Source: a virus (Duplodnaviria > Heunggongvirae > Uroviricota > Caudoviricetes). Taken from it: 14,096 nt of DNA. Below are positions 1 to 14,096 of the stretch, one piece after another. A program made the position numbers and the translations under genes. A model generated the notes under the pieces. The model saw only the letters and a list, made by a program, of their open reading frames with translations. It ran no database searches and was not told the DNA's origin. Numbering within the stretch: position 1 is the first letter of the stretch; each line of letters begins with the position of its first letter. The stretch is taken from IMG/VR virus record IMGVR_UViG_2563366951_000003. The stretch is one strand, 5' to 3'.

Positions 1-1236
1 CTACGATAACCGCGCATTCAACATGGCTATCTGTTCGTCGTTCATGTCATCAATCCACATACCGTAAATTTTATACACCATCTGCGCAGTTTCATGCCCC
101 ATTTGGCTGGCTATAAATGCCGGGTTCGCTCCTGCCGTCAACAGCCAGCAGGCAAAAGTATGCCGCGTATGGTACGGATTACGGCGGCGAATACCAGCAC
201 GTTTTACTGCTGCATTCCACCTTGCCCCCAAACTGCTTACCGAGTAATAAGGTTTTTGTTTTCCGTTACACACCCTGGGCATGAAAACAAAATGCAGTTT
301 TTGCTTTTCGGTTCTGCCGTACTCCCGATGATAAAAGGTGATTTCGCTTTTGCGATGATGCCCGGTCAGTTTGTATTGCTCCTTCAGTGCTTCAAGAGCA
401 GGCTGCAGTAGTGTTACTGTTCGGATCCCGGCATTTGTTTTTGGGGGACCGAACATATCAAGTATCGTCAGGTTTCTTCTGACATTCACTATTCCCTTTT
501 CGAGATCCACATCCTCCCACGCCAGAGCTGCCAGTTCCCCGTGACGAAGTCCTGAGTAAACGGCAAATTTCCACAAGTTCTGGCTCTGTCCTTTTTCACT
601 TTCCATTAATGCATTGAATTCTGTTTTAGATAACGGATCAGGCTTTATTCTGTTTCGCTGTAATTTTTTTACTCCTTCAAATGGTTTGGTTGATATAAAT
701 CCCGACTGATACGCAAAACGCAACAGCGAACAGAGCAGGGCGATATAGTTATCAACTGTGCGCACGGTTCTTCCTTTTTTGTTGGATCTTGGATTATCCA
801 GGTAAAGCGTTTCTCCATGCAGCAGTTCATTCCGGTAGTTTAAGATATCGCTATAACGAATATGTGATATCGGGGTACTTTCACAAATTATTATTCTGAG
901 TGTTTTTAATTGTGATTTCGTTTTCTTCATTGTGTTTGTTGTTAACTCTGTCTCTTTAATTTTTGTCCAGATATCACAAAGCTCTCCGAACGTTTTTATG
1001 ACTCTCGTTGTCACCATTTTTGCCCCAGTGCTGGACTGGGGAAAACGTCTTAAATACTCAAATTCACCGGAGTTTATTTCATGAACTATCAGCGCTCTTA
1101 AATTTCCGGCCTTTTTAATATTACTGTTTGTAATCTCCCAGCCTTTTAATGTTTCCCGACATCGTTTTCCTCGAAACATGAACCAGATGCGAATGTATCT
1201 ACCTCTAATCTCGACACCTGTTGGTAATTTAGACAT
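1..1236 (-). CDS. intR: Prophage integrase, tyrosine recombinase (411 aa)
   Basis: Full ORF with stop at 1-3. C-terminal catalytic signature of tyrosine recombinases (HTRHT ... MVYKIYG with the Tyr nucleophile). Sequence and length match my recollection of Rac IntR. Preceded by a small excisionase-like gene. Confidence 0.93.
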   Translation of the reverse strand: MSKLPTGVEIRGRYIRIWFMFRGKRCRETLKGWEITNSNIKKAGNLRALIVHEINSGEFEYLRRFPQSSTGAKMVTTRVIKTFGELCDIWTKIKETELTTNTMKKTKSQLKTLRIIICESTPISHIRYSDILNYRNELLHGETLYLDNPRSNKKGRTVRTVDNYIALLCSLLRFAYQSGFISTKPFEGVKKLQRNRIKPDPLSKTEFNALMESEKGQSQNLWKFAVYSGLRHGELAALAWEDVDLEKGIVNVRRNLTILDMFGPPKTNAGIRTVTLLQPALEALKEQYKLTGHHRKSEITFYHREYGRTEKQKLHFVFMPRVCNGKQKPYYSVSSLGARWNAAVKRAGIRRRNPYHTRHTFACWLLTAGANPAFIASQMGHETAQMVYKIYGMWIDDMNDEQIAMLNARLS

Positions 1237-1237
1237 A

Positions 1238-1453
1238 TCATGAGTCTTTGATAAACTGATTTATCTTTGGATAGTTGTACCAGATAATCCCTCGTTTGCT
1301 GTCTGGCTTACCTAAAGGAGATACTCGTTTGAAGTGGAAGCCCTCCACCCAACAGTTCTGGCGGTATGCTTCAATTTGTCTGGCCCCCAGACCAGTGCGA
1401 AGCATCAGGCCGTATTCAACCATCCACTCTTCATTAAAGATTACTTGTGCCAT
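1238..1453 (-). CDS. xisR: Excisionase-like small protein (71 aa from the SD-preceded ATG; the tracked ORF is 79 aa)
   Basis: Small ORF immediately upstream of int on the same strand, 1 nt from the int start. AGAGGTGA Shine-Dalgarno precedes the ATG at 1453. Matches remembered YdaQ/XisR. Confidence 0.8.
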
Positions 1454-1531
1454 CGCATCACCTCTGGCAGGCGCCAATGTTAGACTGAAATTGACGCCCG
1501 ATGTTGATTATTAATAATCAGCTATGAAGTT

Positions 1532-1741
1532 TTAATTTGAATACAATGCAATTCTCGAGGACTGAAGTTTCTCGCAATTAAAATTTATCAATTTTACTTT
1601 CTGCTCTCTGGAAACGCCTGCTTCTTTTTTACCTGAGAGCATTTTTTCGCATTCTGATTTCGTTAGTTTAGATTTTGAATATCTTGTCCAGTTAGTAGGA
1701 GTGCCACCTTCCTTTTCAATAGTGGCGGTAATTTTATACAT
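1532..1741 (-). CDS. rcbA: RcbA/YdaC small protein (69 aa)
   Basis: ORF with GGAGG 6 nt upstream of the ATG at 1741. Translation MYKITATIEKEGG... matches remembered YdaC. Its start overlaps the ralR 3' end by 8 nt. Confidence 0.8.
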   Translation of the reverse strand: MYKITATIEKEGGTPTNWTRYSKSKLTKSECEKMLSGKKEAGVSREQKVKLINFNCEKLQSSRIALYSN

Positions 1742-1928
1742 GAACACCTCCATTATTATTTCCAGTGGTTCGTTTATTCCATCTTTCGAGTGCTTCTTTT
1801 TCACTTCCACCATAACCGGTTCGGGATTCGCATCCGTTACACTTCGCTCGGTAATATCCTGAAATGGCTTTCACCGTTACTGATGGACAACCACAAAATG
1901 GACATGGTTTAACATTGTCATATCTCAT
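1734..1928 (-). CDS. ralR: RalR/Lar restriction-alleviation protein and DNase toxin (64 aa)
   Basis: Translation MRYDNVKPCPFCGCPS...CNGCESRTG carries a Cys-rich C4 motif and matches remembered RalR. An in-frame ATG 4 codons upstream (1938-1940) is an alternative start. Confidence 0.8.
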   Translation of the reverse strand: MRYDNVKPCPFCGCPSVTVKAISGYYRAKCNGCESRTGYGGSEKEALERWNKRTTGNNNGGVHV

Positions 1929-1957
1929 AATTTTTCTCATAAAAAATATTTCAAGTT

Positions 1958-1976
1958 GGCGGTGCATTACACCGCC
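1958..1976 (-). terminator. GC-rich stem-loop (GGCGGTG-5 nt loop-CACCGCC) between recT and ralR, followed on the minus strand by a U-rich tract after about 11 nt
   Basis: Read directly: 7-bp perfect stem. The U-tract is not immediately adjacent, so this is at best a weak terminator or attenuator. Confidence 0.3.
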
Positions 1977-1984
1977 AGGCTGAA

Positions 1985-2794
1985 TTATTCCTCTGAATTA
2001 TCGATTACACTGTATTCCCCGGTTAATACAGAGGAATCTGCAGGATCGATTGTCAGTGGTTCCTTTTCATCCATTGATACTGCACGCTGGATCTCAATTG
2101 ATACGGGCAGATATTTGAACAGGCGACGAATAGCCGTTTTCTTTGCCATTTCTTCCCAGTGAGTTACCCACGGCCCGTTATTACCAGCTTTACTCAGGCT
2201 GCGCACCAGCTCAATCTGTTTGCGCGTCATAACTTCAAACTGAGTACCTCCGTCTTTCAGTCTTGCGACAGCATAGACGTGGGTAACCGGGGCATCTTCG
2301 TTTTCTCCCGGGCGGTGTATTAACTTTTCATCAAGGCCAAATTCGAAGCTAAACTCGTCACCTTCACGGACAACACGGGCTGACAGGCTGGCGATTTGAC
2401 CAGAACGGCGAGCCAGATCAATCATGCCGCGATAGCCAATGATTAGCTGAACGTTCTTTTTACCGCTCTTTTCGTTTTTATTACCAAAAGGCAGTAAATA
2501 TGCATGACCGAGGGCGCTACCTGGCTCAAGTCCGAGCTGTGAACACTGTACGATCGCACTGACAAAACTCATAGTGTCACAGTTTCCTAACGCCGGAACT
2601 TTACGAATTTCTGTGGTGGCGATACGGATCATACGTTCAGCCGTCATATGGCGTGGAAGAGCTGCTGCCAGTTGCTCTTTCATTGATGGCTGGTTAATAA
2701 AACTAATCACGTCGCTATTTTTAACTGCTGCTGGTGCACGGTTTCCCTGAGTTTTTTGCAGATCGGCTTTTGCGATTGGTGGTTGCTTAGTCAT
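1985..2794 (-). CDS. recT: RecT single-strand annealing protein (269 aa)
   Basis: Translation from [16 protein letters not shown]... matches remembered RecT. Start overlaps the recE stop by 8 nt. The tracked ORF extends 19 codons further upstream, but that overlap with recE is unlikely to be translated. Confidence 0.93.
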
Positions 2795-5387
2795 TTGCAT
2801 ATTCCTTAGCCCAGCGGGGCAGTGATAATGTCTTAATAGCTGGCCATTCATCGGTATTCAGGCAGTCAGACAGGGTTCGCAGATTGCGGTGATATTCCTG
2901 TTGACCTGCCAGTTTTGCTTCTTCGCCCATCATGAAAATTTCAACCGGATAACGTCCGCATTCAATAGTTGTGCTGGCAACCAGAAAAACGAAAGTTGGC
3001 TGCACTCCAAACTGTGCTTCATAACCGTCACTGTAGAATGCATCCTGAACGTGATAGCGGTAGTCGTAATAAGCGGTTTTGAATCGTTGAATATCCGCCG
3101 TAGTTTTCACGTCCATGATCCAGTGAAATTCAGGGATAATTTTGTCCGGACGGCACCGACACAAAATTCCTGTTTCAGGATCTTCCCAGTAAATTGATGA
3201 TTCAGCGTGTCCGGCGCTTTCAACAAGCCATTGCCCCAGCGGCAAAGCCATAACGCTTTGATACATGAGTTCAATTTTCCGGCCTTCTTCCGCAGTGATA
3301 ACCGTTTTTCCTGTGCTTGCGCATTCCATCAGAAACGCTTTCTCTTCTTCTTTTCCGGCGTTTGTACGGCGGTTAAATTCAGGTGCTACGATAAAGCGGT
3401 TACTGAATTCTTCCGGTTCAAGTACCCGGCAGTGGAAAGCAGTTCCTAAATCGAGCGTTTTTGTCTTTGTGGTGTCCACGGGGGCATTTTTACGCCACAA
3501 ATATAGTGCCGGAGTATCAGCAATGTCATCGAGCTGAGACTTACTGATACCGGGACCCGCGTGGTAATTCTCATTCGAAATTCCGTAATAAATACCTGGC
3601 TCTATGTCTTCTACGATTACGGGATCTGCGACTTCGCCAGTTTCATCACTGCAATCGCGATGCGGATCGCTGCCAGCATTCTCATTGTGCGGATGTTCAG
3701 CGCCTTCCATTTCCTCCGGATCATTTTCCTTAGCTTCAACCTGACTCTCTTCATCGAATGTTTCCTGGTATGTTGCGTCGCCCATCACCGCACCACAGTC
3801 AGGGCAGTTATCCCCGCCAGTCTGGCCGCAGGCATTGCAGGCTATTTCCGGTTCCTGTTGCACTACTGGCTCAGGTTGATTCATATCTGGGCTGGTTTTT
3901 TCCGTTTCTGGCTGGTTCTGGTACACACAATCGCGAGTCTGGATCCCCTTTACCCATTTCGGATCGTTCGGGTCGCTAATTCCGTCAACAAATTCACCAC
4001 GTGATGCAGCAAGCAATTTATCGTCATCGACAGGATTTTTTGATGGAATGTTTTTCCGGGCTTCATGGAGTTCTGCCCGCAGTTCCTGATATTTCGCATC
4101 AACAGAATTTACCTGTGACTGAGCATCCAGCGGCTGCGTGTCCTGATGATGTTCAGTTGCGTCCGGTTCCATTGTTTCAGCCTCTCCCTGTTCAACTGCC
4201 GTTGTTCCAGATGGTTGCGGTTTTTCTTCATCATCCTGTTTTCCTTCTTCTGTTACTCGCTGCGGCATCGGGGCAGAGGAGCGACCGCAGGCAATATCCA
4301 CGATTTCCGGATCAGGGTTGGCATGATCGGTTTCAGTCAGTACTTTGTTCAGATATTCAGTGACGTGCGCGGGGATGACCTCGATCCCAATTGGTGCTTC
4401 TTTTACGGACGCAACCACGATGGCGCGGGAATAATCCAGCCCGCCAGGCATGGTGATGAATTTGTCGCGGAAAACAGAAAAGGGCGGTTTATTTTCAGCG
4501 ATAATTTCCTCAATGCGTTTAGCGTGTGCCGGATGAAGGTTATAGATGTCCAGATCCATTGAACGGGCCAGTACGCCAGTGGCTACGTCGCGCGCCAGTG
4601 ACGTCAGATCGTGTACGAAACCTTCGCCGCGATCGGTGAGGTTTCCGCCGCCAGCATTAGCACCGGAAGCCGTGCGAGTGATGTGTGAAACACGATTACC
4701 CTTCATCCACTCTTTTGTCAGCAGTCCTCGATCGGTGTAGTCAGCGTTCAGGTATGCTTCGAAAAAAGCAGTTATCAGTCCCAGGTTTGAATTACCAGGA
4801 TTAGGGAAAACTTTGTCAGTGTCACGAACCAGTTTGTGGAGTTCGCGAATTTCCAGCGGGTCGAGCAGGCTGGTTTTGTGGGAAACAGCCAGGGCAGTAA
4901 CAGCCGGTAGTTCTTCAGCCCGAGCAATGTGTAATGCCTGGAGTCCGTCGCGTGAAACGTGCGTTACCGGTTTTTCGCTGCCGTGTTGAGCAAGCCAACG
5001 AATGGGCAGTTCCTGGCCAGAAATTGGGAGTAGCATATTCTCCTCAATCTCAGTCATGTCTTCGCCGTTGACGTTGGTATTGCCTTGATAGTGAGCGTTG
5101 TCTGGTGCTGCTCCCGGTTTTAGTTCCCATGTCATGGAGTCTTTGCTGAGTTGATAGCGTTCACTCCAGGTAAAATCGATCTCACCTTCAGCGGGCAGGT
5201 CATTAACGACAGGAAAATTCGTGGCAACAGCTTTAAAATAGCTGCTCAGTTTTTTACCTGACTTAACGATCAGGTAGTCCAGAGTGGCACAGGTCGATTC
5301 AAAATCGTTGCTTGCCCACAGGACGACGTCAGGTTCACTGGATGATTTTTTCGCTTTCCGTAACAGGAAGAGTGGTTTTGTGCTCAT
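2787..5387 (-). CDS. recE: RecE exonuclease VIII (866 aa)
   Basis: 866-aa ORF, the same length as K-12 RecE. The N-terminal two-thirds is acidic and low-complexity with a CxxC-x7-CxxC motif; the C-terminal third corresponds to the nuclease domain. Directly followed by recT. Confidence 0.93.
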
Positions 5388-5458
5388 TGTTTTTTAACCT
5401 CAACTCAGATTAAAATTCGTTTTGTTCAGTGAATGATCTTGCCGGATACACACTGTTC

Positions 5459-5483
5459 ATAGCCTGCGCCATACGCAGGCTAT
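5459..5483. other. Perfect 10-bp inverted repeat (ATAGCCTGCG-5 nt-CGCAGGCTAT) in the racC-recE intercistronic region
   Basis: Read directly. On the plus strand it is followed by TTTCTTTC, so it is terminator-like in the antisense orientation relative to recE. It sits 6 nt downstream of the racC stop. Confidence 0.4.
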
Positions 5484-5488
5484 TTCTT

Positions 5489-5764
5489 TCAGATTTCACC
5501 TTTTAATTTCATTGCAATTAGAGTTGCCAGAAATTCGGCTTTTTTTTCTGCGGGCAGATTCTTTCCGATATGCACCAGGCACATTTTTTTGACACCTTCA
5601 TCAAGTGTTTTTACGTTGCCTGATGGACCATCGATATCAACCACAGTGAATGGGGTTTCTTTATTTTCTGTTTTAATTACGTAGCCAATGCGCTTTCCTT
5701 CCAGATTCACCTCGTGAACAATGTCATCGGTAGTTACAACAGTGGCTTCATAATTGGTAATCAT
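5489..5764 (-). CDS. racC: RacC small protein of unknown function (91 aa)
   Basis: ATG at 5764 is preceded by AAGGAG. Translation MITNYEATVVTTDD... matches remembered RacC. The tracked ORF has a 16-codon upstream extension. Confidence 0.8.
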   Translation of the reverse strand: MITNYEATVVTTDDIVHEVNLEGKRIGYVIKTENKETPFTVVDIDGPSGNVKTLDEGVKKMCLVHIGKNLPAEKKAEFLATLIAMKLKGEI

Positions 5765-5838
5765 GTTTTTCTCCTTAATTAAGGTTGAGCGAATACCTGC
5801 CATTTCTGGCATAAATTCAGTTTCGAATAGTCAATTAA

Positions 5839-6009
5839 TTAAAGTTCATGTGCCATCTGGTCTTTTTCGGCACAAGCTTCACTGCAATATTTTCTCGGTT
5901 CGTCTTTTGATAAAATCCCGTGCATGAAGTGAAGCATTCTTTCAATAGCTTTGCTTTCTTCAACGTCTTTTTTGCAAAGGTGGTAAGCACATTTTATTTT
6001 CTTAGTCAT
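5839..6009 (-). CDS. ydaE: YdaE small Cys-rich protein (56 aa), putative zinc-binding
   Basis: Not in the ORF track (under 60 aa); translated by hand as [56 protein letters not shown]. Has Cx4C ... Cx3C. Its start ATG overlaps the kilR stop by 1 nt (TGATG). Confidence 0.75.
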   Translation of the reverse strand: MTKKIKCAYHLCKKDVEESKAIERMLHFMHGILSKDEPRKYCSEACAEKDQMAHEL

Positions 6010-6230
6010 CACCATGACTCCGCCTTTACAGGTAAACCATCACGACCGAGGAAGACTTTAATCATGCGGTCAGTAATGCATGTTTTTGTGGTCAGGTTAC
6101 GAATATATAGTTTTCGCTTTTTAATATTGTTTGCCGAGGCAATATATGTCCGGCCTTCATGAAGAACATAATCGCCAGGAGTCACACACTGACGTGGTAT
6201 TTCATCAGTTCCGAAGTGATGTGCAATCAT
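6009..6230 (-). CDS. kilR: KilR cell-division (FtsZ) inhibitor (73 aa)
   Basis: ATG at 6230 is preceded by GGAGA. Translation [15 protein letters not shown]... matches remembered KilR. First gene of the leftward early cluster. Confidence 0.85.
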
Positions 6231-6671
6231 AATTATCTCCATTTTTACAAATGAACTTTGTTGATGCGGTGCCTGGTGCCTCCAGGTGACTGCAACCAGT
6301 TAACAATTACAGTCGGCTTTCCCACCCAAACCAATAAGGACTAACATGACTTTTAACTGTGCCACGTGCGCTTAGCCGCATTCACCGCATCACAAAATTC
6401 ACTTTAAAAAGGGCGGACATCAGCCGAACTTCAAGAAAAAAACTGATGCCGCCAGGACTACACACAGCAATGTCGTTATTTACAACCGGAGGCGCACTCC
6501 CACCATTTAAATTTAACAGACAAGACCGACTCTTTATGGATATCGGAAATGCGCCTTCGTGTTGTGCCCGGTTTTATTTCACCACCTCCGGGCTTCGGTG
6601 GTCTCGGCTATACCCCTACAGCGAGAGCTTGTGTTAACATTTCAATACCCTTACAGTTGAGAGTTATTGAT

Positions 6672-7160
6672 ATGTTGGATGTATTTACTCCATTGTTGAA
6701 ACTTTTTGCTAACGAGCCACTCGAAAGACTTATGTATACGATTATCATTTTTGGTCTCACTCTCTGGCTGATACCGAAAGAGTTTACTGTCGCATTCAAT
6801 GCTTATACTGAAATACCTTGGCTCTTTCAGATTATCGTTTTTGCCTTTTCTTTCGTGGTCGCCATTTCCTTCTCAAGATTGCGAGCACATATTCAAAAGC
6901 ATTATTCATTACTACCAGAGCAACGAGTATTGCTTCGTTTATCTGAGAAAGAAATCGCTGTATTTAAAGATTTCCTTAAAACAGGAAATCTTATTATCAC
7001 TTCTCCTTGCCGTAACCCGGTTATGAAAAAATTAGAACGGAAGGGCATCATTCAACATCAGAGTGATAGCGCAAACTGTTCTTATTATCTCGTCACCGAA
7101 AAATACTCCCATTTTATGAAGTTATTCTGGAACAGCAGGAGTAGACGTTTTAATCGTTAG
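6672..7160 (+). CDS. sieB: SieB superinfection-exclusion membrane protein (162 aa)
   Basis: Translation from MLDVFTPLLKLFANEPLERLMYTIIIFGLTLWLI... has two hydrophobic helices and matches remembered SieB. The tracked 203-aa ORF has a 41-codon N-terminal extension without support. Confidence 0.85.
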   Translation: MLDVFTPLLKLFANEPLERLMYTIIIFGLTLWLIPKEFTVAFNAYTEIPWLFQIIVFAFSFVVAISFSRLRAHIQKHYSLLPEQRVLLRLSEKEIAVFKDFLKTGNLIITSPCRNPVMKKLERKGIIQHQSDSANCSYYLVTEKYSHFMKLFWNSRSRRFNR

Positions 7161-7321
7161 CTTACTGTGTGCTTCTCCAACCATCGGCGCGCACCAGTTT
7201 CGGTTTTAAATGTTTTGCTTTTGGTATACGTCATGGCAGTGAACGTTCCATCCTGGTTGGGGAACACGCCGCACACCAGGGATTCGTTGTTGCCGAGGTC
7301 GATTTTTTGCATTTTGCGAAT

Positions 7322-7456
7322 CTCACATCTTGTTGCTACGTATAGCGACTTCTGCCTGCCAGAGATCCCAGTCGTTGCTGCGTAAAGCCTGCACAGCCTG
7401 GTTGTAAGTGATACCGCAACAATCCATCAAATACTGAACTACTTCGTAATGCACCA
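7322..7456 (-). CDS. ydaG: YdaG small protein (44 aa), function unknown
   Basis: Not in the ORF track; translated by hand as MVHYEVVQYLMDCCGITYNQAVQALRSNDWDLWQAEVAIRSNKM. Matches remembered Rac YdaG. Confidence 0.65.
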
Positions 7457-7489
7457 TCTTATCTCTCCCCTTAACGCCGGGTGGCGGAA

Positions 7490-7645
7490 CTAACTGCTGC
7501 ACTGCAAAATTTGAATCCCGCCGTCATGTTCATACGCCTCGGGCTGGCTACTTAACCCCTTACCACTGCCTGGTAACTCGAAGTATTGCCCTGCGTTCTG
7601 TGGGGCGGGGTGGGTTGGTAGGTATATAATGTACTTTGTGTTCAT
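7490..7645 (-). CDS. ydaF: YdaF small protein (51 aa), function unknown
   Basis: Translation MNTKYIIYLPTHPAPQNAGQYFELPGSGKG... matches remembered YdaF. An adjacent in-frame ATG (7646-7648) is an alternative start. Confidence 0.65.
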   Translation of the reverse strand: MNTKYIIYLPTHPAPQNAGQYFELPGSGKGLSSQPEAYEHDGGIQILQCSS

Positions 7646-7672
7646 CATTGTAAAGTACTTTAAGTACATTTT
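7624..7672. promoter_or_regulatory. Candidate left operator/promoter region between racR and ydaF
   Basis: Contains TATATAAT, the heptamer ATGTACT at 7629-7635 (plus) and 7663-7669 (minus), the perfect palindrome TAAAGTACTTTA at 7651-7662, and TACATTTTATGTA. The same heptamer recurs in the racR/ydaS intergenic region. Confidence 0.45.
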
Positions 7673-7744
7673 ATGTATAAAAAAATGAGACGGGATAAAG
7701 TGAAGCACAAACCCGGAGGGGGACGCTACCGGATTTATGCTGAT

Positions 7745-8164
7745 TTAAGAGGCTTTTTGTTTTTTCTTTCGTGCTAACTCTTCGTAAATTGCATTGTACT
7801 TCTGTTTTTTCTCCTCAAGAGTTTTTAAAAGTTCATCTGTCTCACTGTCAGGGAGCTCGTCCAGAAGGTCAATGATGATTTTTTGTCTTGGATTTAACTC
7901 CTGATAGAAACGTATCTGTCCACTTTCTTCTGTATCCTCTCCCAAAAGATAGGTTGGTGTTGTTCCAATGAGTGTTGCTAATTCCCTTAATTTCTCTCGG
8001 CGAGGAATTGTTTCACCATTAAACCATTTGCTAACCGCTTTTGGTGTTAATTTCATTCGACGGGCAATTTCTGCCTGCCTTCCATGTTGTTCATAACCAG
8101 CGTTTTCACAGGCTAGCGCAAGCCTACTGGCGAACTCTTTACGCGCTTTATCTTCATGAACCAT
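7745..8164 (-). CDS. racR: RacR, cI-like HTH (XRE-family) prophage repressor (139 aa from the first ATG)
   Basis: Helix-turn-helix segment QAEIARRMKLTPKAVSKWFNGETIP. Divergent from ydaS-ydaT. An in-frame stop lies 19 codons upstream of the ATG, so the protein cannot be much longer in this sequence. Confidence 0.85.
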   Translation of the reverse strand: MVHEDKARKEFASRLALACENAGYEQHGRQAEIARRMKLTPKAVSKWFNGETIPRREKLRELATLIGTTPTYLLGEDTEESGQIRFYQELNPRQKIIIDLLDELPDSETDELLKTLEEKKQKYNAIYEELARKKKQKAS

Positions 8165-8243
8165 AAGTTCAATGATATTCGCTCTTGAATGTACTGTCAG
8201 TTCTGTTATGGCATGTACTCAAAGTTCACATTGTGAGGATGAT
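8165..8243. promoter_or_regulatory. Divergent racR / ydaS promoter-operator region (OR-like)
   Basis: 79-bp gap between the divergent starts. ATGTACT direct repeats at 8189-8195 and 8213-8219, plus the small palindrome ACTGTCAGT. Position equals lambda OR between cI and cro. Confidence 0.5.
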
Positions 8244-8498
8244 ATGAACCAGAAAACACTTGAAGATGTAATCAAAACTGTTCGCGTTTCTGTTGTGGCC
8301 GACGTTTGTGGTGTCAGCCAAAGAGCAATCTACAAATGGATGGATAACGGAAAATTGCCTCGCACAGAATATACCGGCGAAACAAATTACGCTGAAAAAA
8401 TCGCTCATGCATCAAACGGATTATTTTCTGCCGATGCAATTTTAACTATTGGCAGAAATAAAACTACTACGAAAAAGCTGATGGGAGTTGATTCATGA
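8244..8498 (+). CDS. ydaS: YdaS, Cro-like HTH protein (84 aa from the SD-preceded ATG)
   Basis: HTH segment VADVCGVSQRAIYKWMDNGKLP. GAGGA precedes the ATG at 8244. In-frame ATGs at 8208 and 8172 are alternative starts but lack an SD. Stop overlaps the ydaT start (ATGA). Confidence 0.8.
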   Translation: MNQKTLEDVIKTVRVSVVADVCGVSQRAIYKWMDNGKLPRTEYTGETNYAEKIAHASNGLFSADAILTIGRNKTTTKKLMGVDS

Positions 8499-8917
8499 AA
8501 ATCAAGCATGAGCACATCGAATCAGTGTTGTTAGCCCTGGCAGCCGAAAAAGGGCAGGCGTGGGTCGCTAACGCAATTACTGAAGAATATCTGCGCCAGG
8601 GGGGCGGCGAATTGCCCCTGGTACCAGGCAAGGACTGGAACAATCAGCAGAATATCTATCATCGTTGGTTGAAAGGTGAAACGAATGCGCAAAGGGAAAA
8701 AATTCAGAAACTGATCCCTGCGGTTCTGGCAATTCTTCCTCGCGAGCTGCGTCACCGACTCTGCATCTTCGATACCCTGGAACGCCGTGCATTACTGGCG
8801 GCACAGGATGCACTGAGTACGGCAATTGATGCGCATGATGATGCAGTCCAGGCCGTTTACCGTAAAGCACATTTCAGCGGCGGCGGTTCTCCTAGCGATT
8901 CTGTCGTAGTGCATTGA
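8495..8917 (+). CDS. ydaT: YdaT, toxic protein of the RacR-controlled module (140 aa)
   Basis: 140-aa ORF translationally coupled to ydaS by a 4-nt overlap. Matches remembered YdaT. Confidence 0.85.
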   Translation: MKIKHEHIESVLLALAAEKGQAWVANAITEEYLRQGGGELPLVPGKDWNNQQNIYHRWLKGETNAQREKIQKLIPAVLAILPRELRHRLCIFDTLERRALLAAQDALSTAIDAHDDAVQAVYRKAHFSGGGSPSDSVVVH

Positions 8918-8930
8918 TTGAAATTAATCG

Positions 8931-8952
8931 TACCGAACTGTTTTGTTCGGTA
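8931..8952 (+). other. Stem-loop TACCGAAC-TGTTTT-GTTCGGTA immediately after the ydaT stop
   Basis: Read directly: 8-bp perfect stem, no clear U-tract afterwards. Lies between ydaT and the ydaU leader palindrome. Confidence 0.3.
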
Positions 8953-8961
8953 TCAGTTAAA

Positions 8962-8982
8962 TGTAACGCTGCGAGCGTTACA
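8962..8982. repeat. Perfect 21-bp palindrome TGTAACGCT-GCG-AGCGTTACA in the ydaU leader
   Basis: Read directly: 9-bp arms are exact reverse complements around a 3-bp spacer. Same core as the repeats inside ydaU. Confidence 0.8.
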
Positions 8983-8994
8983 AGGTGAAAACAA

Positions 8995-9783
8995 ATGGCT
9001 TCAAACTGGATAAAGCTCGAAGTTATTACGCCGGATAAGCCGGAAATATTCAGGCTTGCTGAGATTCTGAATATTGATCCAGATGCCGCATTAGGGAAAG
9101 TCATTCGCTTCTGGGCATGGGCGGATCAACAAATGATAGACGGTAACGCAGAGTGTAACGCTCGCGGCGTTACAAAAAGTGCAATAGATCGCATCACTTT
9201 TATGGCTGGTTTTGCTGATGCGTTAATTCAGGTTGGATGGCTGGTCGAAACTAATGGTGTGTTGTCGCTTCCTAACTTTGAGCGCCATAACGGGAAAAGC
9301 TCTAAAAAACGGGCGGTTACAAACGAGAGAGTAACAAAAATACGAGAACTGAAACGAAAAGGTAACGCTGCCAGCGTTACAAAAACGGATCAAAAAGCGT
9401 TACCAGAGGAAGAGAAAGAGGAAGATATAAATACTTATCTCCCCCTAAATCCCCCTCGCCAAAAACGAGCGTCTAAAAAATTCGAACCGGAGGCTATCGA
9501 GCTGCCTGACTGGTTGCCGGAAACACTCTGGCATGAGTGGGTTCAGTTCAGGCAGGCATTGCGAAAACCGATTCGAACGGAGCAGGGCGCTAACGGGGCG
9601 ATACGGGAGCTGGAAAAATTCCGCCAGCAGGGTTTTTCACCTGAGCAGGTGATTCGACACAGCATCGCCAATGAATACCAGGGCTTGTTCGCGCCAAAAG
9701 GTGTTCGACCTGAGACGTTACTCCGACAGGTTAACACCGTCTCGTTACCGGATAGTGCGATCCCGCCAGGCTTCAGGGGGTAA
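8995..9783 (+). CDS. ydaU: YdaU, putative replication-initiation (O-like) protein (262 aa from ATG)
   Basis: AGGTG Shine-Dalgarno 8 nt upstream of the ATG. Gene sits directly before the DnaC-like ydaV and contains multiple GTAACG palindromic repeats, as lambda O contains its ori iterons. In-frame GTG (8986) or TTG (8914) starts are possible. Confidence 0.8.
   Translation: MASNWIKLEVITPDKPEIFRLAEILNIDPDAALGKVIRFWAWADQQMIDGNAECNARGVTKSAIDRITFMAGFADALIQVGWLVETNGVLSLPNFERHNGKSSKKRAVTNERVTKIRELKRKGNAASVTKTDQKALPEEEKEEDINTYLPLNPPRQKRASKKFEPEAIELPDWLPETLWHEWVQFRQALRKPIRTEQGANGAIRELEKFRQQGFSPEQVIRHSIANEYQGLFAPKGVRPETLLRQVNTVSLPDSAIPPGFRG
9143..9174. repeat. GTAACGC half-site plus palindrome TGTAACGC-TCGCG-GCGTTACA inside ydaU
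   Basis: Read directly: half-site at 9143-9149, palindrome with 8-bp arms at 9154-9174. Confidence 0.75.
9316..9380. repeat. Degenerate GTTAC/GTAAC inverted pair (9316-9335) and palindrome GTAACGCT-GCC-AGCGTTAC (9362-9380) in an A-rich stretch of ydaU; candidate origin iterons
   Basis: Read directly. About eleven GTAACG half-sites cluster between 8960 and 9740. The arrangement resembles lambda ori iterons inside gene O. Confidence 0.6.
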
Positions 9784-9789
9784 CTGACC

Positions 9790-10536
9790 ATGAAAAATAT
9801 TGCGGCAGGCGGCATTCTTGAACGTATCCGCAGACTGGCCCCGCCACATGTAACCGCCCCATTCAAAACGGTAGCGGAGTGGCGCGAGTGGCAACTTTCC
9901 GAAGGCCAGAAACGTTGTGAGGAGATCAACCGTCAGAATCGTCAGTTGCGGGTGGAAAAAATTCTGAATCGCTCTGGCATCCAGCCATTGCACCGCAAAT
10001 GCTCGTTTTCGAATTACCAGGTGCAGAACGAAGGGCAGCGATACGCGTTGAGTCAGGCGAAATCCATCGCTGATGAACTGATGACCGGGTGTACAAATTT
10101 TGCGTTCAGCGGAAAACCTGGTACCGGAAAAAACCATCTGGCGGCGGCTATCGGGAATCGCCTGCTGAAAGATGGCCAGACAGTGATTGTGGTTACCGTG
10201 GCTGATGTCATGAGTGCCCTACACGCCAGCTATGACGACGGGCAATCAGGCGAAAAATTTTTGCGGGAACTGTGCCAAGTGGATCTGCTGGTTCTTGATG
10301 AAATTGGCATTCAGCGCGAGACAAAAAACGAGCAGGTGGTGCTGCACCAGATTGTTGATCGCCGGACAGCGTCGATGCGCAGCGTGGGGATGCTGACAAA
10401 CCTGAATTATGAGGCCATGAAAACATTGCTCGGCGAGAGGATTATGGATCGCATGACCATGAACGGCGGGCGATGGGTGAATTTTAACTGGGAGAGCTGG
10501 CGTCCGAATGTCGTCCAGCCAGGAATTGCGAAGTAA
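9790..10536 (+). CDS. ydaV: YdaV, DnaC-like AAA+ helicase-loader replication protein (248 aa)
   Basis: Walker [11 protein letters not shown] and Walker B LLVLDEIG motifs. Position is equivalent to lambda P/DnaC. Length matches remembered YdaV. Confidence 0.9.
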
Positions 10537-10558
10537 TTTTTACCGGGAGAAAAATTTA

Positions 10559-11320
10559 ATGGAGACTGTTTTTGACGCACTGAAAGCAATGGGAAAAGCC
10601 ACATCCATAGAACTTGCTGCGCGACTTGATATCAGCCGTGAAGAAGTGCTGAACGAACTATGGGAACTGAAAAAGGCTGGTTTCGTTGATAAAAGCGCGT
10701 ACACCTGGCGTGTGGCTGATAACAACGTTCAGCAGGAACAGCCAGCGCCGGCAGAACTGCCGGAAGAAACTACCACGGCAACAGTCGCGAAAATTTCAGA
10801 GAGCGATTTAACTGCGACGATTGAACAACGTGGTCCACTAACTGCGGATGAACTGGCTACGTTGTTCGGTACCACATCCCGCAAAGTGGCTTCAACGCTG
10901 GCAATGGCAATCAGCAAAGCTCGTCTGATTCGCGTTAATCAGAACGGTAAATTTCGTTACTGCATGCCGGGCGGTAATTTACCAGCAGAGCCGAAAGCTG
11001 CATCGGTAGCGGAAACAGATGGTAAAGCCTTTCCTCAGCTAGCCGGTGTTGCGTTACCAGTACAGGAAGCTGCAACACAGGAAGATATTAAAACAGAAAC
11101 TGTGGCGGACATTGTGCAGTCGTTGCCATCGTTTACTGAAACGCAAGCGGATAACCTGATTTTACCATCGCTGCATATGGCAAACCGTGAACTGCGTCGG
11201 GCGAAAAATCATGTCCAGAAGTGGGAGCGAGTCTGCGCCGCGCTGCGGGAGCTGAACAAGCACCGGGATATTGTTCGACAGATTACTGATTCTTCCCGCC
11301 GTGTTGTATCGGAAAAGTGA
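10559..11320 (+). CDS. Uncharacterised prophage protein with winged-helix-like N-terminal region and basic/coiled-coil C-terminus (253 aa); possibly the intact counterpart of K-12 ydaW
   Basis: GGGAGA SD 8 nt before the ATG at 10559. The tracked ORF starts at 10508 inside ydaV without an SD. Two segments resemble winged-helix folds ([31 protein letters not shown] and [34 protein letters not shown]). Family assignment is from memory only. Confidence 0.7.
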
Positions 11321-11335
11321 TTGCCGGAGGCGCTT

Positions 11336-11758
11336 ATGGCAAAAGTATTTACACAAGAAGAGCGGGAAAAAATTAAAGGGCAGGTTGTTGAACTAGTACG
11401 CCGGAGTGGGCGCGAGACGTTACGGCAACTGGAAGCCAAGACAGGTGCGACAAGATATCTGATGAGCGTTCTCGCCAGAGAGCTGGTTGCCAGTGGCGAT
11501 GTATACAACTCTGGTTACGGGTTATTCCCGTCTGAACAGGCTCGTAAGGACTGGCAAAATGCCCGCAAAAAACTATCTAGGGCAAAGCTGAAGAAACCGG
11601 TTGTGGTTGATCCGGACCTTATCTGGTCATTACCTGACGGAGAAATACGTCGCTACGACAGTCGCCTAAACATAATCTGTCGCGAGTGCCGGAAGAGCGA
11701 AGTTATGCAGCGCATATTGTCGTTTTATCAGGGGGATGTTCGGTATTTATTGAAGTGA
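11336..11758 (+). CDS. Uncharacterised prophage protein (140 aa) with winged-helix-like N-terminus
   Basis: GGAGG SD 5 nt before the ATG at 11336. Follows the previous gene after a 15-nt gap. Segment ETLRQLEAKTGATRYLMSVLARELVASGDV resembles a winged-helix fold. No match to a characterised protein that I can recall. Confidence 0.65.
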   Translation: MAKVFTQEEREKIKGQVVELVRRSGRETLRQLEAKTGATRYLMSVLARELVASGDVYNSGYGLFPSEQARKDWQNARKKLSRAKLKKPVVVDPDLIWSLPDGEIRRYDSRLNIICRECRKSEVMQRILSFYQGDVRYLLK

Positions 11759-12092
11759 CGAGATTAAAGTGCATTAGTTCAGATGCAAATTGACATTTTG
11801 TGGCACAGGGTAGAGCTAGCGTGGTTGTCCGCTTTGTGCCAAGAGCAGACGCTGGTAATTCGTGCCTAATATACTTCACTTAACTTATATCCCAGCTTTG
11901 ATACAGATCATACAAATTAAATGCCCCAGTAATTGGCAGGCTGAGTAACTTAAAACTCCTTAGAATATAGGATGATTTGTATCGGCACTCATTCCACCAT
12001 GCATTCCGATTAACCCCGCATAGCCAGTTGAACTTTGCTACTCTGTGAGAGGTAGTACCTTCTATCCAGTGCGGATTTAATTAATGGAATAA

Positions 12093-14096
12093 ATGATTAT
12101 GAGTGAAAATGATACAACCCCAAAGAAGTCTACAAGCCAGATTAACAAAGCGGTATTCTTTACATCTGCTTTGCTAATTTTCCTTCTTGTCGCCTTTGCC
12201 GCCGTATTCCCGGATGTCGCCGACAAAAATTTTAAACTACTTCAGCAACAAATCTTCACGAATGCCAGCTGGTTCTACATACTTGCTGTGGCCCTGATTT
12301 TACTGAGCGTCACGTTCCTTGGACTCTCACGTTACGGTGATATAAAGCTGGGCCCAGACCATGCGCAGCCTGATTTCAGCTACCACTCCTGGTTCGCGAT
12401 GCTTTTTTCGGCAGGGATGGGGATCGGCCTGATGTTCTTTGGCGTTGCCGAACCTGTGATGCATTATCTTTCGCCACCTGTCGGCACTCCAGAGACCGTT
12501 GCGGCAGCGAAGGAAGCCATGCGCCTGACGTTCTTCCACTGGGGTCTGCACGCATGGGCAATTTATGCCATCGTGGCGCTGATTCTGGCCTTTTTCAGTT
12601 ACCGTCACGGTCTGCCTTTAACGCTGCGTTCTGCGCTCTATCCCATTATCGGCGATCGCATTTACGGGCCTATAGGCCACGCGGTTGATATCTTCGCCGT
12701 GATAGGCACTGTCTTTGGCGTTGCAACATCGCTGGGTTACGGTGTATTGCAGGTGAATGCCGGTTTGAACCATCTTTTCGGCGTGCCCATCAATGAAACG
12801 GTACAGGTCATTTTGATCGTGGTCATCACGGGGTTAGCGACGATTTCGGTGGTGTCCGGCCTGGACAAGGGAATACGCATCCTGTCTGAGCTTAATCTGG
12901 GCCTGGCGGTGTTGCTCCTGGCGCTGGTCTTGTGCCTGGGTCCCACTGTGCTTCTGCTGAAGTCATTTGTGGAAAATACGGGTGGTTATCTGTCGGAACT
13001 GGTGAGTAAAACGTTCAACCTTTACGCGTATGAACCCAAGTCGAGCAACTGGCTGGGGGGCTGGACATTATTATACTGGGGATGGTGGCTTTCATGGTCG
13101 CCGTTTGTAGGTATGTTCATTGCACGCGTTTCCCGCGGCAGGACAATTCGTGAGTTCGTGACTGGCGTGTTGTTTGTTCCCGCCGGCTTTACGCTCATGT
13201 GGATGACGGTGTTTGGAAACAGCGCCATCTATCTCATCATGAACCAGGGCGCCACTGACCTCGCCAATACCGTTCAGCAGGATGTTGCGCTTGCCCTGTT
13301 TAATTTCCTGGAGCATTTCCCGTTCTCTTCCGTGCTGTCATTCATTGCAATGGCGATGGTCATCGTCTTCTTTGTAACGTCTGCTGATTCGGGGGCAATG
13401 GTTGTGGATACTCTGGCATCAGGTGGGGTGGCAAACACGCCCGTCTGGCAGCGAATTTTCTGGGCATCGCTCATGGGCGTTGTTGCTATTGCCCTGCTGA
13501 TCGCAGGGGGGCTGAGTGCGTTGCAAACCGTAACGATAGCGAGTGCATTGCCCTTCTCAGTTATCTTATTAATATCCATATACGGACTGTTAAAAGCCCT
13601 GCGTCGGGATTTGACCAAGCGTGAAAGCCTTAGCATGGCGACTATTGCTCCTACGGCTGCACGTAACCCAATTCCCTGGCAGAGAAGGTTACGCAATATC
13701 GCGTATTTGCCGAAGCGCTCTCTTGTGAAACGTTTTATGGACGACATTATCCAACCCGCCATGACGCTGGTTCAGGAGGAACTTAACAAGCAGGGAACGA
13801 TAAGCCACATCAGTGACGCCGCCGAGGATCGTATTCGCCTTGAAGTCGATTTGGGCAACGAGCTGAATTATATATATGAAGTGAGGCTTCGCGGGTATAA
13901 CTCACCGACCTTCGCGCTCGCTGCGCTGGATAATGATGAGCAGCAGAGTGAACAACATCGATATTATCGCGCTGAAGTCTATCTCAAAGAGGGCGGCCAA
14001 AATTATGATGTAATGGGCTGGAATCAGGAACAGCTGATTAATGACATACTGGACCAGTACGAAAAACACCTGCACTTCCTGCATCTGGTTCGTTAA
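12093..14096 (+). CDS. BCCT-family transporter, BetT-like choline/betaine transporter (667 aa, complete)
   Basis: Multiple hydrophobic helices and the BCCT tryptophan-rich signature (GGWTLLYWGWWLSWSPFVGMFIARVSRGRTIREFV). Roughly 170-aa hydrophilic C-terminal extension ending ...ILDQYEKHLHFLHLVR, resembling E. coli BetT. Stop TAA at 14094-14096. ATG at 12099 is an alternative start. Confidence 0.88.
   Translation: MIMSENDTTPKKSTSQINKAVFFTSALLIFLLVAFAAVFPDVADKNFKLLQQQIFTNASWFYILAVALILLSVTFLGLSRYGDIKLGPDHAQPDFSYHSWFAMLFSAGMGIGLMFFGVAEPVMHYLSPPVGTPETVAAAKEAMRLTFFHWGLHAWAIYAIVALILAFFSYRHGLPLTLRSALYPIIGDRIYGPIGHAVDIFAVIGTVFGVATSLGYGVLQVNAGLNHLFGVPINETVQVILIVVITGLATISVVSGLDKGIRILSELNLGLAVLLLALVLCLGPTVLLLKSFVENTGGYLSELVSKTFNLYAYEPKSSNWLGGWTLLYWGWWLSWSPFVGMFIARVSRGRTIREFVTGVLFVPAGFTLMWMTVFGNSAIYLIMNQGATDLANTVQQDVALALFNFLEHFPFSSVLSFIAMAMVIVFFVTSADSGAMVVDTLASGGVANTPVWQRIFWASLMGVVAIALLIAGGLSALQTVTIASALPFSVILLISIYGLLKALRRDLTKRESLSMATIAPTAARNPIPWQRRLRNIAYLPKRSLVKRFMDDIIQPAMTLVQEELNKQGTISHISDAAEDRIRLEVDLGNELNYIYEVRLRGYNSPTFALAALDNDEQQSEQHRYYRAEVYLKEGGQNYDVMGWNQEQLINDILDQYEKHLHFLHLVR

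Follow-up and report, generated by a model that had tools for sequence, protein, structure and literature searches.

We analysed a window of 14,096 nt (the whole stretch of DNA under study, one strand of the Caudoviricetes record IMGVR_UViG_2563366951_000003) that ends in a gene for a BCCT-family transporter, and here we describe this gene, the spacer in front of it, and the prophage slot in which it lies. The genes upstream of the transporter are of the Rac type (intR, recT, recE, kilR, sieB, an immunity region, ydaT, ydaV, a DUF1627 gene, and a DUF977 gene; Table 1), and positions 1–7620 of the window are 99.9% identical to the Rac prophage of Escherichia coli K-12. The DUF977 open reading frame (ORF) ends at 11758 and is followed by a spacer of 334 bp (11759–12092) and then by the transporter ORF, whose stop codon closes the window. 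The original prediction, made from the letters of the window, had described this arrangement as an AT-rich gap of 334 bp before a complete BCCT ORF of 667 aa that runs to the end of the window, and the ORF coordinates and the composition bear this out, with a GC content of 0.413 for the spacer, 0.49 for the DUF977 gene, and 0.51 for the transporter. In the RefSeq annotation of identical DNA, the transporter starts two codons later at 12099, giving a protein of 665 aa.

The translated protein matches the Pfam BCCT profile (PF02028) from end to end (profile positions 1–485 of 485, E = 7e-199, 661.7 bits against a cut-off of 27), and it contains the Trp-rich signature of BCCT transmembrane segment 8 (GWTLxYWxWW) in the stretch ...NWLGGWTLLYWGWWLSWSPF.... 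The NCBIfam BetT subfamily profile is covered over positions 4–663 of 675 with 752 bits against a cut-off of 695; therefore, the transporter has a BetT-type C-terminal domain, as had been predicted. By sequence, the gene is the already known betU and is not new as a gene. For the locus as a whole, we consider it highly probable that it represents a BCCT osmoprotectant transporter gene, betU, carried as a cassette together with a DUF2254 gene in a DUF977–hokD/nin slot of Rac that is distinct from the position of trkG. The main interest lies in the site-bounded cassette slot, the gene itself being ordinary.

Table 1. Features of the window and of related loci, with coordinates counted from the first base of the window or of the locus named
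Feature	Position	Strand	Evidence or remark
DUF1627 gene, replication module	10508..11320	+	Pfam DUF1627, E = 4e-97
DUF977 gene, last backbone gene before the slot	11321..11758	+	Pfam DUF977, E = 1.8e-28; RefSeq start 11336
Non-coding prophage backbone	11759..11826	.	Aligned with G12, H3, and A20 prophages to ~11850; common to island-free prophages
24-nt imperfect palindrome GTCCGCTTTGTGCCAAGAGCAGAC	11827..11850	+	Sole match in the window, 0 expected by chance
Cassette-borne betU leader	11851..12092	+	Accompanies the gene onto plasmids and into Citrobacter braakii
betU-type BCCT transporter gene	12093..14096	+	667 aa; Pfam BCCT, NCBIfam BetT subfamily, BetU identity
Immunity/early replication region	7620-9410		Unlike K-12 racR/ydaS/ydaU; same variant in G12 Rac
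Helix-turn-helix repressor-like gene	7745-8164	-	139 aa
ORF	8995-9783		262 aa; no Pfam match
Boundary sites, locus L005	20501-20524, 24174-24197, 27240-27263		
Boundary sites, locus L008	7507-7530, 8515-8538		
Boundary sites, viral contigs L098-L217			
fec-locus betU-DUF2254, locus L218	9110-12447		O104:H4 2011C-3493
fec-locus betU-DUF2254, locus L219	9110-11508		BAP1, BL21 lineage

Position of the transporter in Rac-type prophages

The original prediction advised extending the window to the right, and genomes that reach further do hold prophage genes beyond the island. In strain CP53, where Rac lies at ttcA, the left part of the prophage runs from intR to DUF977 and is followed by betU, DUF2254, and, on the opposite strand, genes for a LysR regulator, a ChaC-like gamma-glutamylcyclotransferase (GGCT), and an MFS transporter, after which come hokD, DUF1367, DUF1364, DUF1133, and further genes up to holin, lysozyme, Rz, trkG, ynaK, and terminase. 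Thus, this one Rac prophage holds both betU and trkG, with trkG about 13 kb to the right, after holin, lysozyme, and Rz. Rac of strain G12 is identical to the window in its immunity and replication proteins and also has trkG, and it carries a one-gene insert of 984 bp after DUF977 without the island. The G12, H3, and A20 prophages all have both flanks as in the betU carriers with other content in the slot, and the DUF977 gene is kept in thousands of lambdoid prophages that are without the island.

Homology to K-12 Rac ends at window position 11008, within the DUF1627 gene, and K-12 ydaW is a truncated remnant of that gene. When K-12 Rac is aligned with G12, the alignment stops inside the DUF1627 gene and resumes inside Rz, with 6.9 kb lost. 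This deletion covers DUF977, the slot, the nin/Q-like genes, holin, and lysozyme. Because it joins ydaW to rzpR, trkG stands beside ydaW in K-12 (about 470 bp after it), and because K-12 Rac is deleted from inside ydaW to rzpR, it is unusable as a reference for the junction.

DNA identical to positions 11300–14096 is present in 14 complete genomes, and a search for the same junction in other genomes, as had been suggested, finds DUF977 joined to betU in ~390 of 5426 complete E. coli genomes. The window differs at 1 nt in 14,096 from strain ECONIH4, where the insertion sequence (IS) IS1 follows the island, with uspF and ompN, the chromosomal genes that flank Rac on the right, immediately after it. 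This island–IS1–uspF junction occurs in exactly 13 genomes, all of them among the 14 with a 100% match to the window. The truncation in the lineage of the window lies ~3.1 kb past the window's end, after DUF2254–LysR–GGCT–MFS. An IS1-mediated deletion took away all that lay rightward of the two cassettes, and what is left is a prophage remnant in which the transporter is by now fixed.

The fourteenth genome, 2273-PO3, has the same IS1 joined to genes of the Qin prophage, a strain-specific rearrangement that makes it misleading as a reference layout. It has three IS1 copies around Rac (L001 959–1656, 9257–9954, and 28567–29264; L004), and the left half of Rac with the island is fused to Qin late genes, of which ydfJ is the rightmost gene. 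This layout points to a rearrangement between Rac and Qin across the terminus region, mediated by IS1.

These layouts bear on two other accounts of the locus. The original prediction named trkG as lying in this neighbourhood of K-12 Rac, correctly, as trkG does lie shortly after ydaV–ydaW there, and it went on to place the transporter in trkG's cargo position. A transporter that replaces trkG at the same position would fit the superficially similar neighbourhood in K-12; however, in CP53 and G12 trkG follows holin, lysozyme, and Rz, with the DUF977-proximal slot ~13 kb upstream of it, CP53 has the two genes together, and the K-12 layout is the product of the 6.9-kb deletion, so that we give this account almost no credence. 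Equally improbable is that the prophage ends inside 11759–12092 and that the transporter is an ordinary chromosomal gene, an alternative that the original prediction had kept alongside its first. The lineage of the window does carry a truncated Rac in which IS1 abuts uspF, and a related betU allele does occur at a non-phage locus near fec. However, the truncation lies outside the window, phage genes continue past the island in most of the ~390 genomes with the junction, as they do in CP53, and the sequence at 11827–11850 is conserved as the left edge of a slot whose cargo differs in other prophages. The idea of a truncated prophage is thus right for the IS1 end of this lineage and wrong for 11759–12092, which holds the cassette boundary. 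As for a chromosomal context outside the prophage, the 93% allele has one at fec, but this is a different, IS-flanked accessory locus and not an ancestral context of the window's copy.

The betU cassette is cargo of a variable DUF977–hokD/nin slot in a Rac-type prophage, and intact Rac holds both the betU slot and trkG. The suggestion that the transporter is an osmoprotectant-uptake moron has therefore stood up, with Rac genes on both of its sides in CP53, its absence from the homologous Rac of G12, and 97.9% identity to the BetU of Tn6062. This setting of betU in a prophage slot is not described in the literature searched, and a slot distinct from that of trkG corrects the K-12-based view of one common position.

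The boundary site and the cargo slot

Backbone sequence is shared with island-free prophages up to ~11850, and the plasmid copies of betU–DUF2254 begin at 11826. Because the backbone homology and the plasmid module overlap there, the junction between phage and cargo falls at 11827–11850, which is occupied by the 24-nt imperfect palindrome of Table 1. Positions 11827–11841 (the 5′ arm and the loop) belong to the backbone, and positions 11842–11850 (the 3′ arm) move with the betU cassette. The C. braakii and plasmid copies of the module begin at this left boundary site. A second copy, oriented like the first, is found 62 nt past the stop codon of DUF2254; the plasmid module ends 2 nt past it and the C. 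braakii module at its last base. A third copy, inverted, lies at the right edge of the island, and the outer copies with their adjacent bases form a 37-nt inverted repeat around the slot. Between the sites there are 226 nt in A20, 984 nt in G12, and 6715 nt in CP53, and no empty slot was found in the 5426 genomes, the nearest to one being that of A20.

The sites have a 9-6-9 geometry, with the spacer GTGCCA at left sites and GAGCGA at right sites, which are in the inverted orientation. They are hybrids, as seen where one cassette has different neighbours: the 5′ arm and the loop go with the backbone, and the 3′ arm goes with the cargo. Among informative groups with a common inner flank, 13 of 14 have a constant 9-nt 3′ arm. 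Among groups with a common outer flank, the 15-nt stretch of 5′ arm plus loop does not vary in 14 of 18, and the 3′ arm does not vary in only 2 of 18. Because the arms segregate with different flanks, we place the breakpoint between the loop and the 3′ arm. Over 233 sites, the pair at positions 4 and 21 is C-G in 127, C·A in 49, T·G in 49, and T-A in 3, and there is no compensatory covariation at this pair. Hairpin stability is unremarkable (z about −1.2), and because of this ordinary stability and the lack of covariation at 4/21, we do not call the site a structured RNA. The integrated betU sites are C4·A21 on the left and T4·G21 on the right, and the cassette's own ends, the 3′ arm AGAGCAGAC and the 5′ arm GTCTGCTTTG, would pair perfectly at 4/21.

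The motif GTCYGCTTTGWGCSARNAGCRGAC is present in more than 120 viral contigs, a minimum from the matches listed. The common layout is DUF977, a site on the plus strand, cargo, a site on the minus strand, and hokD ~500 nt further on, and arrays of several cassettes with alternating sites are also found. The ~128 loci hold at least 60 different cargos, which sit in lambdoid prophages and large plasmids, and copies of any one cargo are exactly constant in length: 984 nt (10 copies), 1442 nt (6), 2192 nt (5), 3042 nt for LysR–GGCT–MFS (4), and 2056 nt (3). The ORFs in these cargos include many members of PADLOC defence families, so that numerous cassettes carry anti-phage defence genes (PD-T7-1, PD-T7-5, PDC-S06, PDC-S33, reverse transcriptases, and PrrC-like proteins) and proteins with the Pfam domains TIR, HEPN, AbiGi, and RelA/SpoT, together with transport and metabolic functions (BCCT, MFS, LysE, CDF, QueH, and adenosine deaminase). 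A site of this kind also lies next to hok–relE–relB in more than 800 plasmids, again with different cargo, one example being an IncHI2 plasmid that carries a CDF transporter and a cytochrome b. In the literature searched, neither the motif, nor a lambdoid hotspot at this position, nor BetU in prophages is described, which does not prove novelty.

Spread and possible exchange of the betU cassette

The DUF2254 gene, which encodes a membrane protein, lies just beyond the window, 63 bp downstream of betU in all genomes identical to it, and it follows betU in every mobile context examined. The betU–DUF2254 cassette is 3648–3649 nt long in 12 copies from phage, plasmids, and viral contigs. Its right-hand neighbours vary, being LysR–GGCT–MFS as a second cassette in the lineage of the window, in CP53, and in some of the contigs, other cassettes elsewhere, and the G12-type cassette in a Shigella plasmid; we found no Rac with LysR–GGCT–MFS directly after DUF977 and without betU. 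On its left, the cassette brings along a leader of 243 nt that moves together with the gene. Plasmids share the window's sequence from 11826 (99.8–99.9% identity), the fec-locus allele from ~11990, and Tn6062 from ~12028. The leader is presumed to hold the gene's own regulatory region, and a permissive-threshold Rfam search of 11600–12200 gave chance-level matches only.

The betU gene is present in 1931 of the 5426 complete E. coli genomes. An allele of at least 99% identity accounts for ~408 records, either in the Rac slot or on plasmids, and a betU–DUF2254 allele of 93% identity for ~1550 records (~29% of the complete genomes), where it lies in an IS-rich patch next to fecABCDE that may be the locus of the originally described betU. 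A third allele, of ~92% identity, is found on ~1300 plasmids, mostly of Klebsiella. The plasmid copies of at least 99% identity that we examined share one context (qnrS1–ISKpn19–resolvase–...–relB, betU–DUF2254 ... IS26) and represent essentially one capture event that has since spread. The qnrS1 resistance region of E. coli, Klebsiella, Shigella, and Enterobacter plasmids has the cassette at 99.8–99.9% identity, which connects resistance plasmids with prophage cargo slots in a single gene pool. The region from qnrS1–ISKpn19 to IS26 (L002 3654–11654; L094; L095) resembles the content of a prophage cargo slot, and within it betU–DUF2254 and a G12-type cassette (WP_000161640.1) are both bounded by the same palindromic sites.

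Orthologues of betU with 78–94% identity and without an adjacent DUF2254 gene occur in Serratia, Cedecea, C. freundii, Scandinavium, Xenorhabdus, and Providencia, so that a native chromosomal origin of the betU–DUF2254 pair is unsupported. DUF2254 accompanies betU in E. coli and on plasmids, with a remnant in C. braakii and Raoultella (L013–L031 and L065, species-representative genomes), and it seems that the two genes came together a single time and that the pair spread afterwards. At L013 7660–7745, in C. braakii, the module has the same two ends and an internal deletion of most of DUF2254, and a stretch beside this module was read by eye as a degraded 3′ fragment of a tRNA-Pro gene, where ARAGORN calls nothing, and scans for tRNA and tmRNA genes found nothing at any junction. 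One 49-kb region of CFT073, whose choice was a guess, does not contain betU.

We infer that betU entered the prophage by recombination at the 24-nt site at 11827–11850, and the hybrid sites suggest site-specific cassette exchange. We further propose, tentatively and with more doubt than confidence, that the 24-nt palindromes serve as core sites in a not yet described system of conservative, site-specific cassette exchange. Defence and fitness cassettes would move through it between the lambdoid DUF977–hokD slot and the hok–relBE slot of IncHI2, IncF, and qnrS1 plasmids, and the betU cassette of the window would be one of its integrated units. The 9-6-9 geometry and the hybrids would be in keeping with a defined site of conservative recombination that resembles the simple sites of tyrosine recombinases. 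The C4·A21 and T4·G21 sites would then be the reciprocal hybrids expected when a circular T4–A21 cassette recombines with a C4–G21 phage site, and the junction of the circular betU–DUF2254 cassette is predicted to be GTCTGCTTTGTGCCA+AGAGCAGAC. If this is true, the system would carry a salt-tolerance pair of multidrug-resistant typhoid plasmids, and, if the sites prove to be recombination sites, they would offer a concrete, testable mechanism for the gain and exchange of cargo at lambdoid prophage hotspots.

What weighs against site-specific exchange is that no recombinase gene is consistently adjacent to the sites. An alternative that we regard as quite possible, if short of probable, is that the palindromes are only conserved intergenic repeats, resembling terminators or repetitive extragenic palindromic (REP) elements, at which cargo is shuffled through 15 nt of homology by RecET/Red or RecA. 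The breakpoints within or at the edge of the sole conserved stretch would fit such shuffling, as would the RecET encoded by Rac itself, the lack of a consistently adjacent recombinase gene, the unremarkable hairpins, and the pairing at 4/21 that is not kept. On the other hand, at least 60 unrelated cargos begin with the inverted arm, in the recognisable form RNAGCRGAC, which homology-driven exchange does not require, the GTGCCA and GAGCGA spacer classes are tied to the left and right sides and inverted, and the cassette lengths are exact. In addition, 15 nt is very short for recombination of the RecA type. In the annotated loci examined, no integrase gene is adjacent to the slot, and a Phage_integrase domain is present in only 2 of 94 cassette ORFs, one of which encodes a 200-aa protein of plasmid pPO125. 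A 200-aa protein with a tyrosine-recombinase domain is encoded inside some slots, abutting a degenerate site (L002 9800–10402; L102; L201), and it could be a candidate recombinase or mere cargo. An integron gene cassette was considered and rejected, as direct reading of the consensus GTCYGCTTTGWGCSARNAGCRGAC shows no RYYYAAC...GTTRRRY attC boxes.

Identity of the transporter and comparison with known systems

BetU is said to be the betaine-uptake BCCT transporter of the E. coli pyelonephritis isolate HU734, described by Ly et al. in 2004. Holt et al. 2011 (PMC3139670) gave the name betU to the gene SPAP0106 of Tn6062, and both of their Tn6062 cloning primers match exactly in locus L010, from an IncHI1 plasmid of Salmonella Typhi. 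Because of these exact matches, we identify L010 as Tn6062, and its BCCT protein is 97.9% identical to that of the window at the amino acid level. The cloned pair SPAP0106 and SPAP0105, corresponding to betU and DUF2254, was reported to enable S. Typhi to grow at 0.8 M NaCl, and it has been suggested that the pair gives the globally dominant IncHI1 PST6 typhoid plasmid a selective advantage (PMC3139670). A Klebsiella plasmid copy with 97.7% identity to the window is annotated as secondary glycine betaine transporter BetU. Among solved structures, the closest is 8ybq, a full-length BCCT protein of 685 aa matched over residues 7–667.

From its family and the literature, the window's BetU would be a secondary transporter that takes up compatible solutes under hyperosmotic stress, with glycine betaine and proline betaine as the reported substrates, and it would raise osmotolerance through betaine uptake. 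By analogy with BetT and BetP, its C-terminal domain probably serves regulation. The gene has the orientation of the early-right operon, and because the 243-nt leader moves with it, betU would be expressed from its own leader promoter while the prophage is repressed.

Several points weigh against this account. Neither a consensus sigma-70 promoter nor an intrinsic terminator was found in the scan of 11650–12200. The protein scores 593 on the NCBIfam glycine-betaine equivalog, below its cut-off of 650, and NCBIfam places it in the BetT (choline) subfamily instead. The match to a characterised BetU goes back to the naming of SPAP0106 by Holt et al. and to the one Klebsiella plasmid annotation, and their osmotolerance clone held both betU and the DUF2254 gene, so that its effect is that of the pair. 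One alternative is a BetT-like choline transporter that feeds a choline-to-betaine pathway and is not a betaine importer. Its score above the BetT subfamily cut-off, the name “choline BCCT transporter BetT” given to plasmid copies, and the presence of choline and trimethylamine transporters among its solved relatives would agree with such a role. However, identity to K-12 BetT is only 41.7%, the neighbours of the transporter are DUF977 and DUF2254 with no linkage to betI, betB, or betA, and Holt et al. refer to BetU as a system for the uptake of glycine betaine and proline betaine that was discovered in pyelonephritis E. coli (PMC3139670, citing Ly et al. 2004). We therefore consider a choline transporter improbable, and betU remains the assignment that we carry forward. 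Most chromosomal copies are annotated only as “BCCT family transporter”. Because identity is 41.7% to BetT and ~98% to BetU, the plasmid name BetT is, by sequence comparison, probably too specific and wrong in substrate.

The nearest known relative is the BetU of Tn6062, which is alike in length, in its BetT-like C-terminal domain, and in having a DUF2254 partner downstream (98.4% identity). The two differ in that IS1 bounds Tn6062, which begins only ~65 nt before the gene, whereas the pair in the window is a palindrome-bounded prophage cassette with the 243-nt leader, and the DNA identity is 92.7%. Tn6062 as a composite transposon was accordingly rejected for the window, since no IS1 lies directly beside betU–DUF2254 and the 24-nt sites stand on both sides; the only IS1 near the window's copy comes after the next cassette. 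K-12 BetT, a choline:H+ symporter of the betT–betIBA locus, shares the BCCT core and the long cytoplasmic C-terminal domain, but besides its low identity and its bet operon linkage it has another reported substrate in the literature.

Like betU, trkG of K-12 Rac, an ion-transport moron, is non-phage transporter cargo of Rac-type prophages with relevance to osmoadaptation. Unlike betU, it occupies a slot after Rz and before ynaK/terminase, belongs to another family, has no 24-nt boundary sites seen around it, and has a very different composition, with a GC content of 0.38 against 0.51.

Compared with attC cassettes of integrons, the pdif modules of Acinetobacter plasmids, and shufflon sfx sites, the cassettes described here appear similar by analogy in being promoter-poor and of exact length, with short imperfect palindromes, hybrid-half sites, arrays of alternating orientation, and one cassette occurring in unrelated replicons. 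They differ in the 24-nt site, which has no GTTRRRY/RYYYAAC boxes and no resemblance to dif, in having no adjacent intI, xer, or rci gene, and in their location in a lambdoid prophage slot and at a hok–relBE-adjacent plasmid site. Defence hotspots of P2 and P4 prophages and satellites were described by Rousset et al. 2022 (PMC9122126), and the DUF977–hokD slot is like these in being a fixed position in temperate phages with highly variable cargo rich in anti-phage systems. It is unlike them in lying in lambdoid phages between DUF977 and hokD, in carrying non-defence fitness cargo such as betU, and in being bounded by a specific palindromic site.

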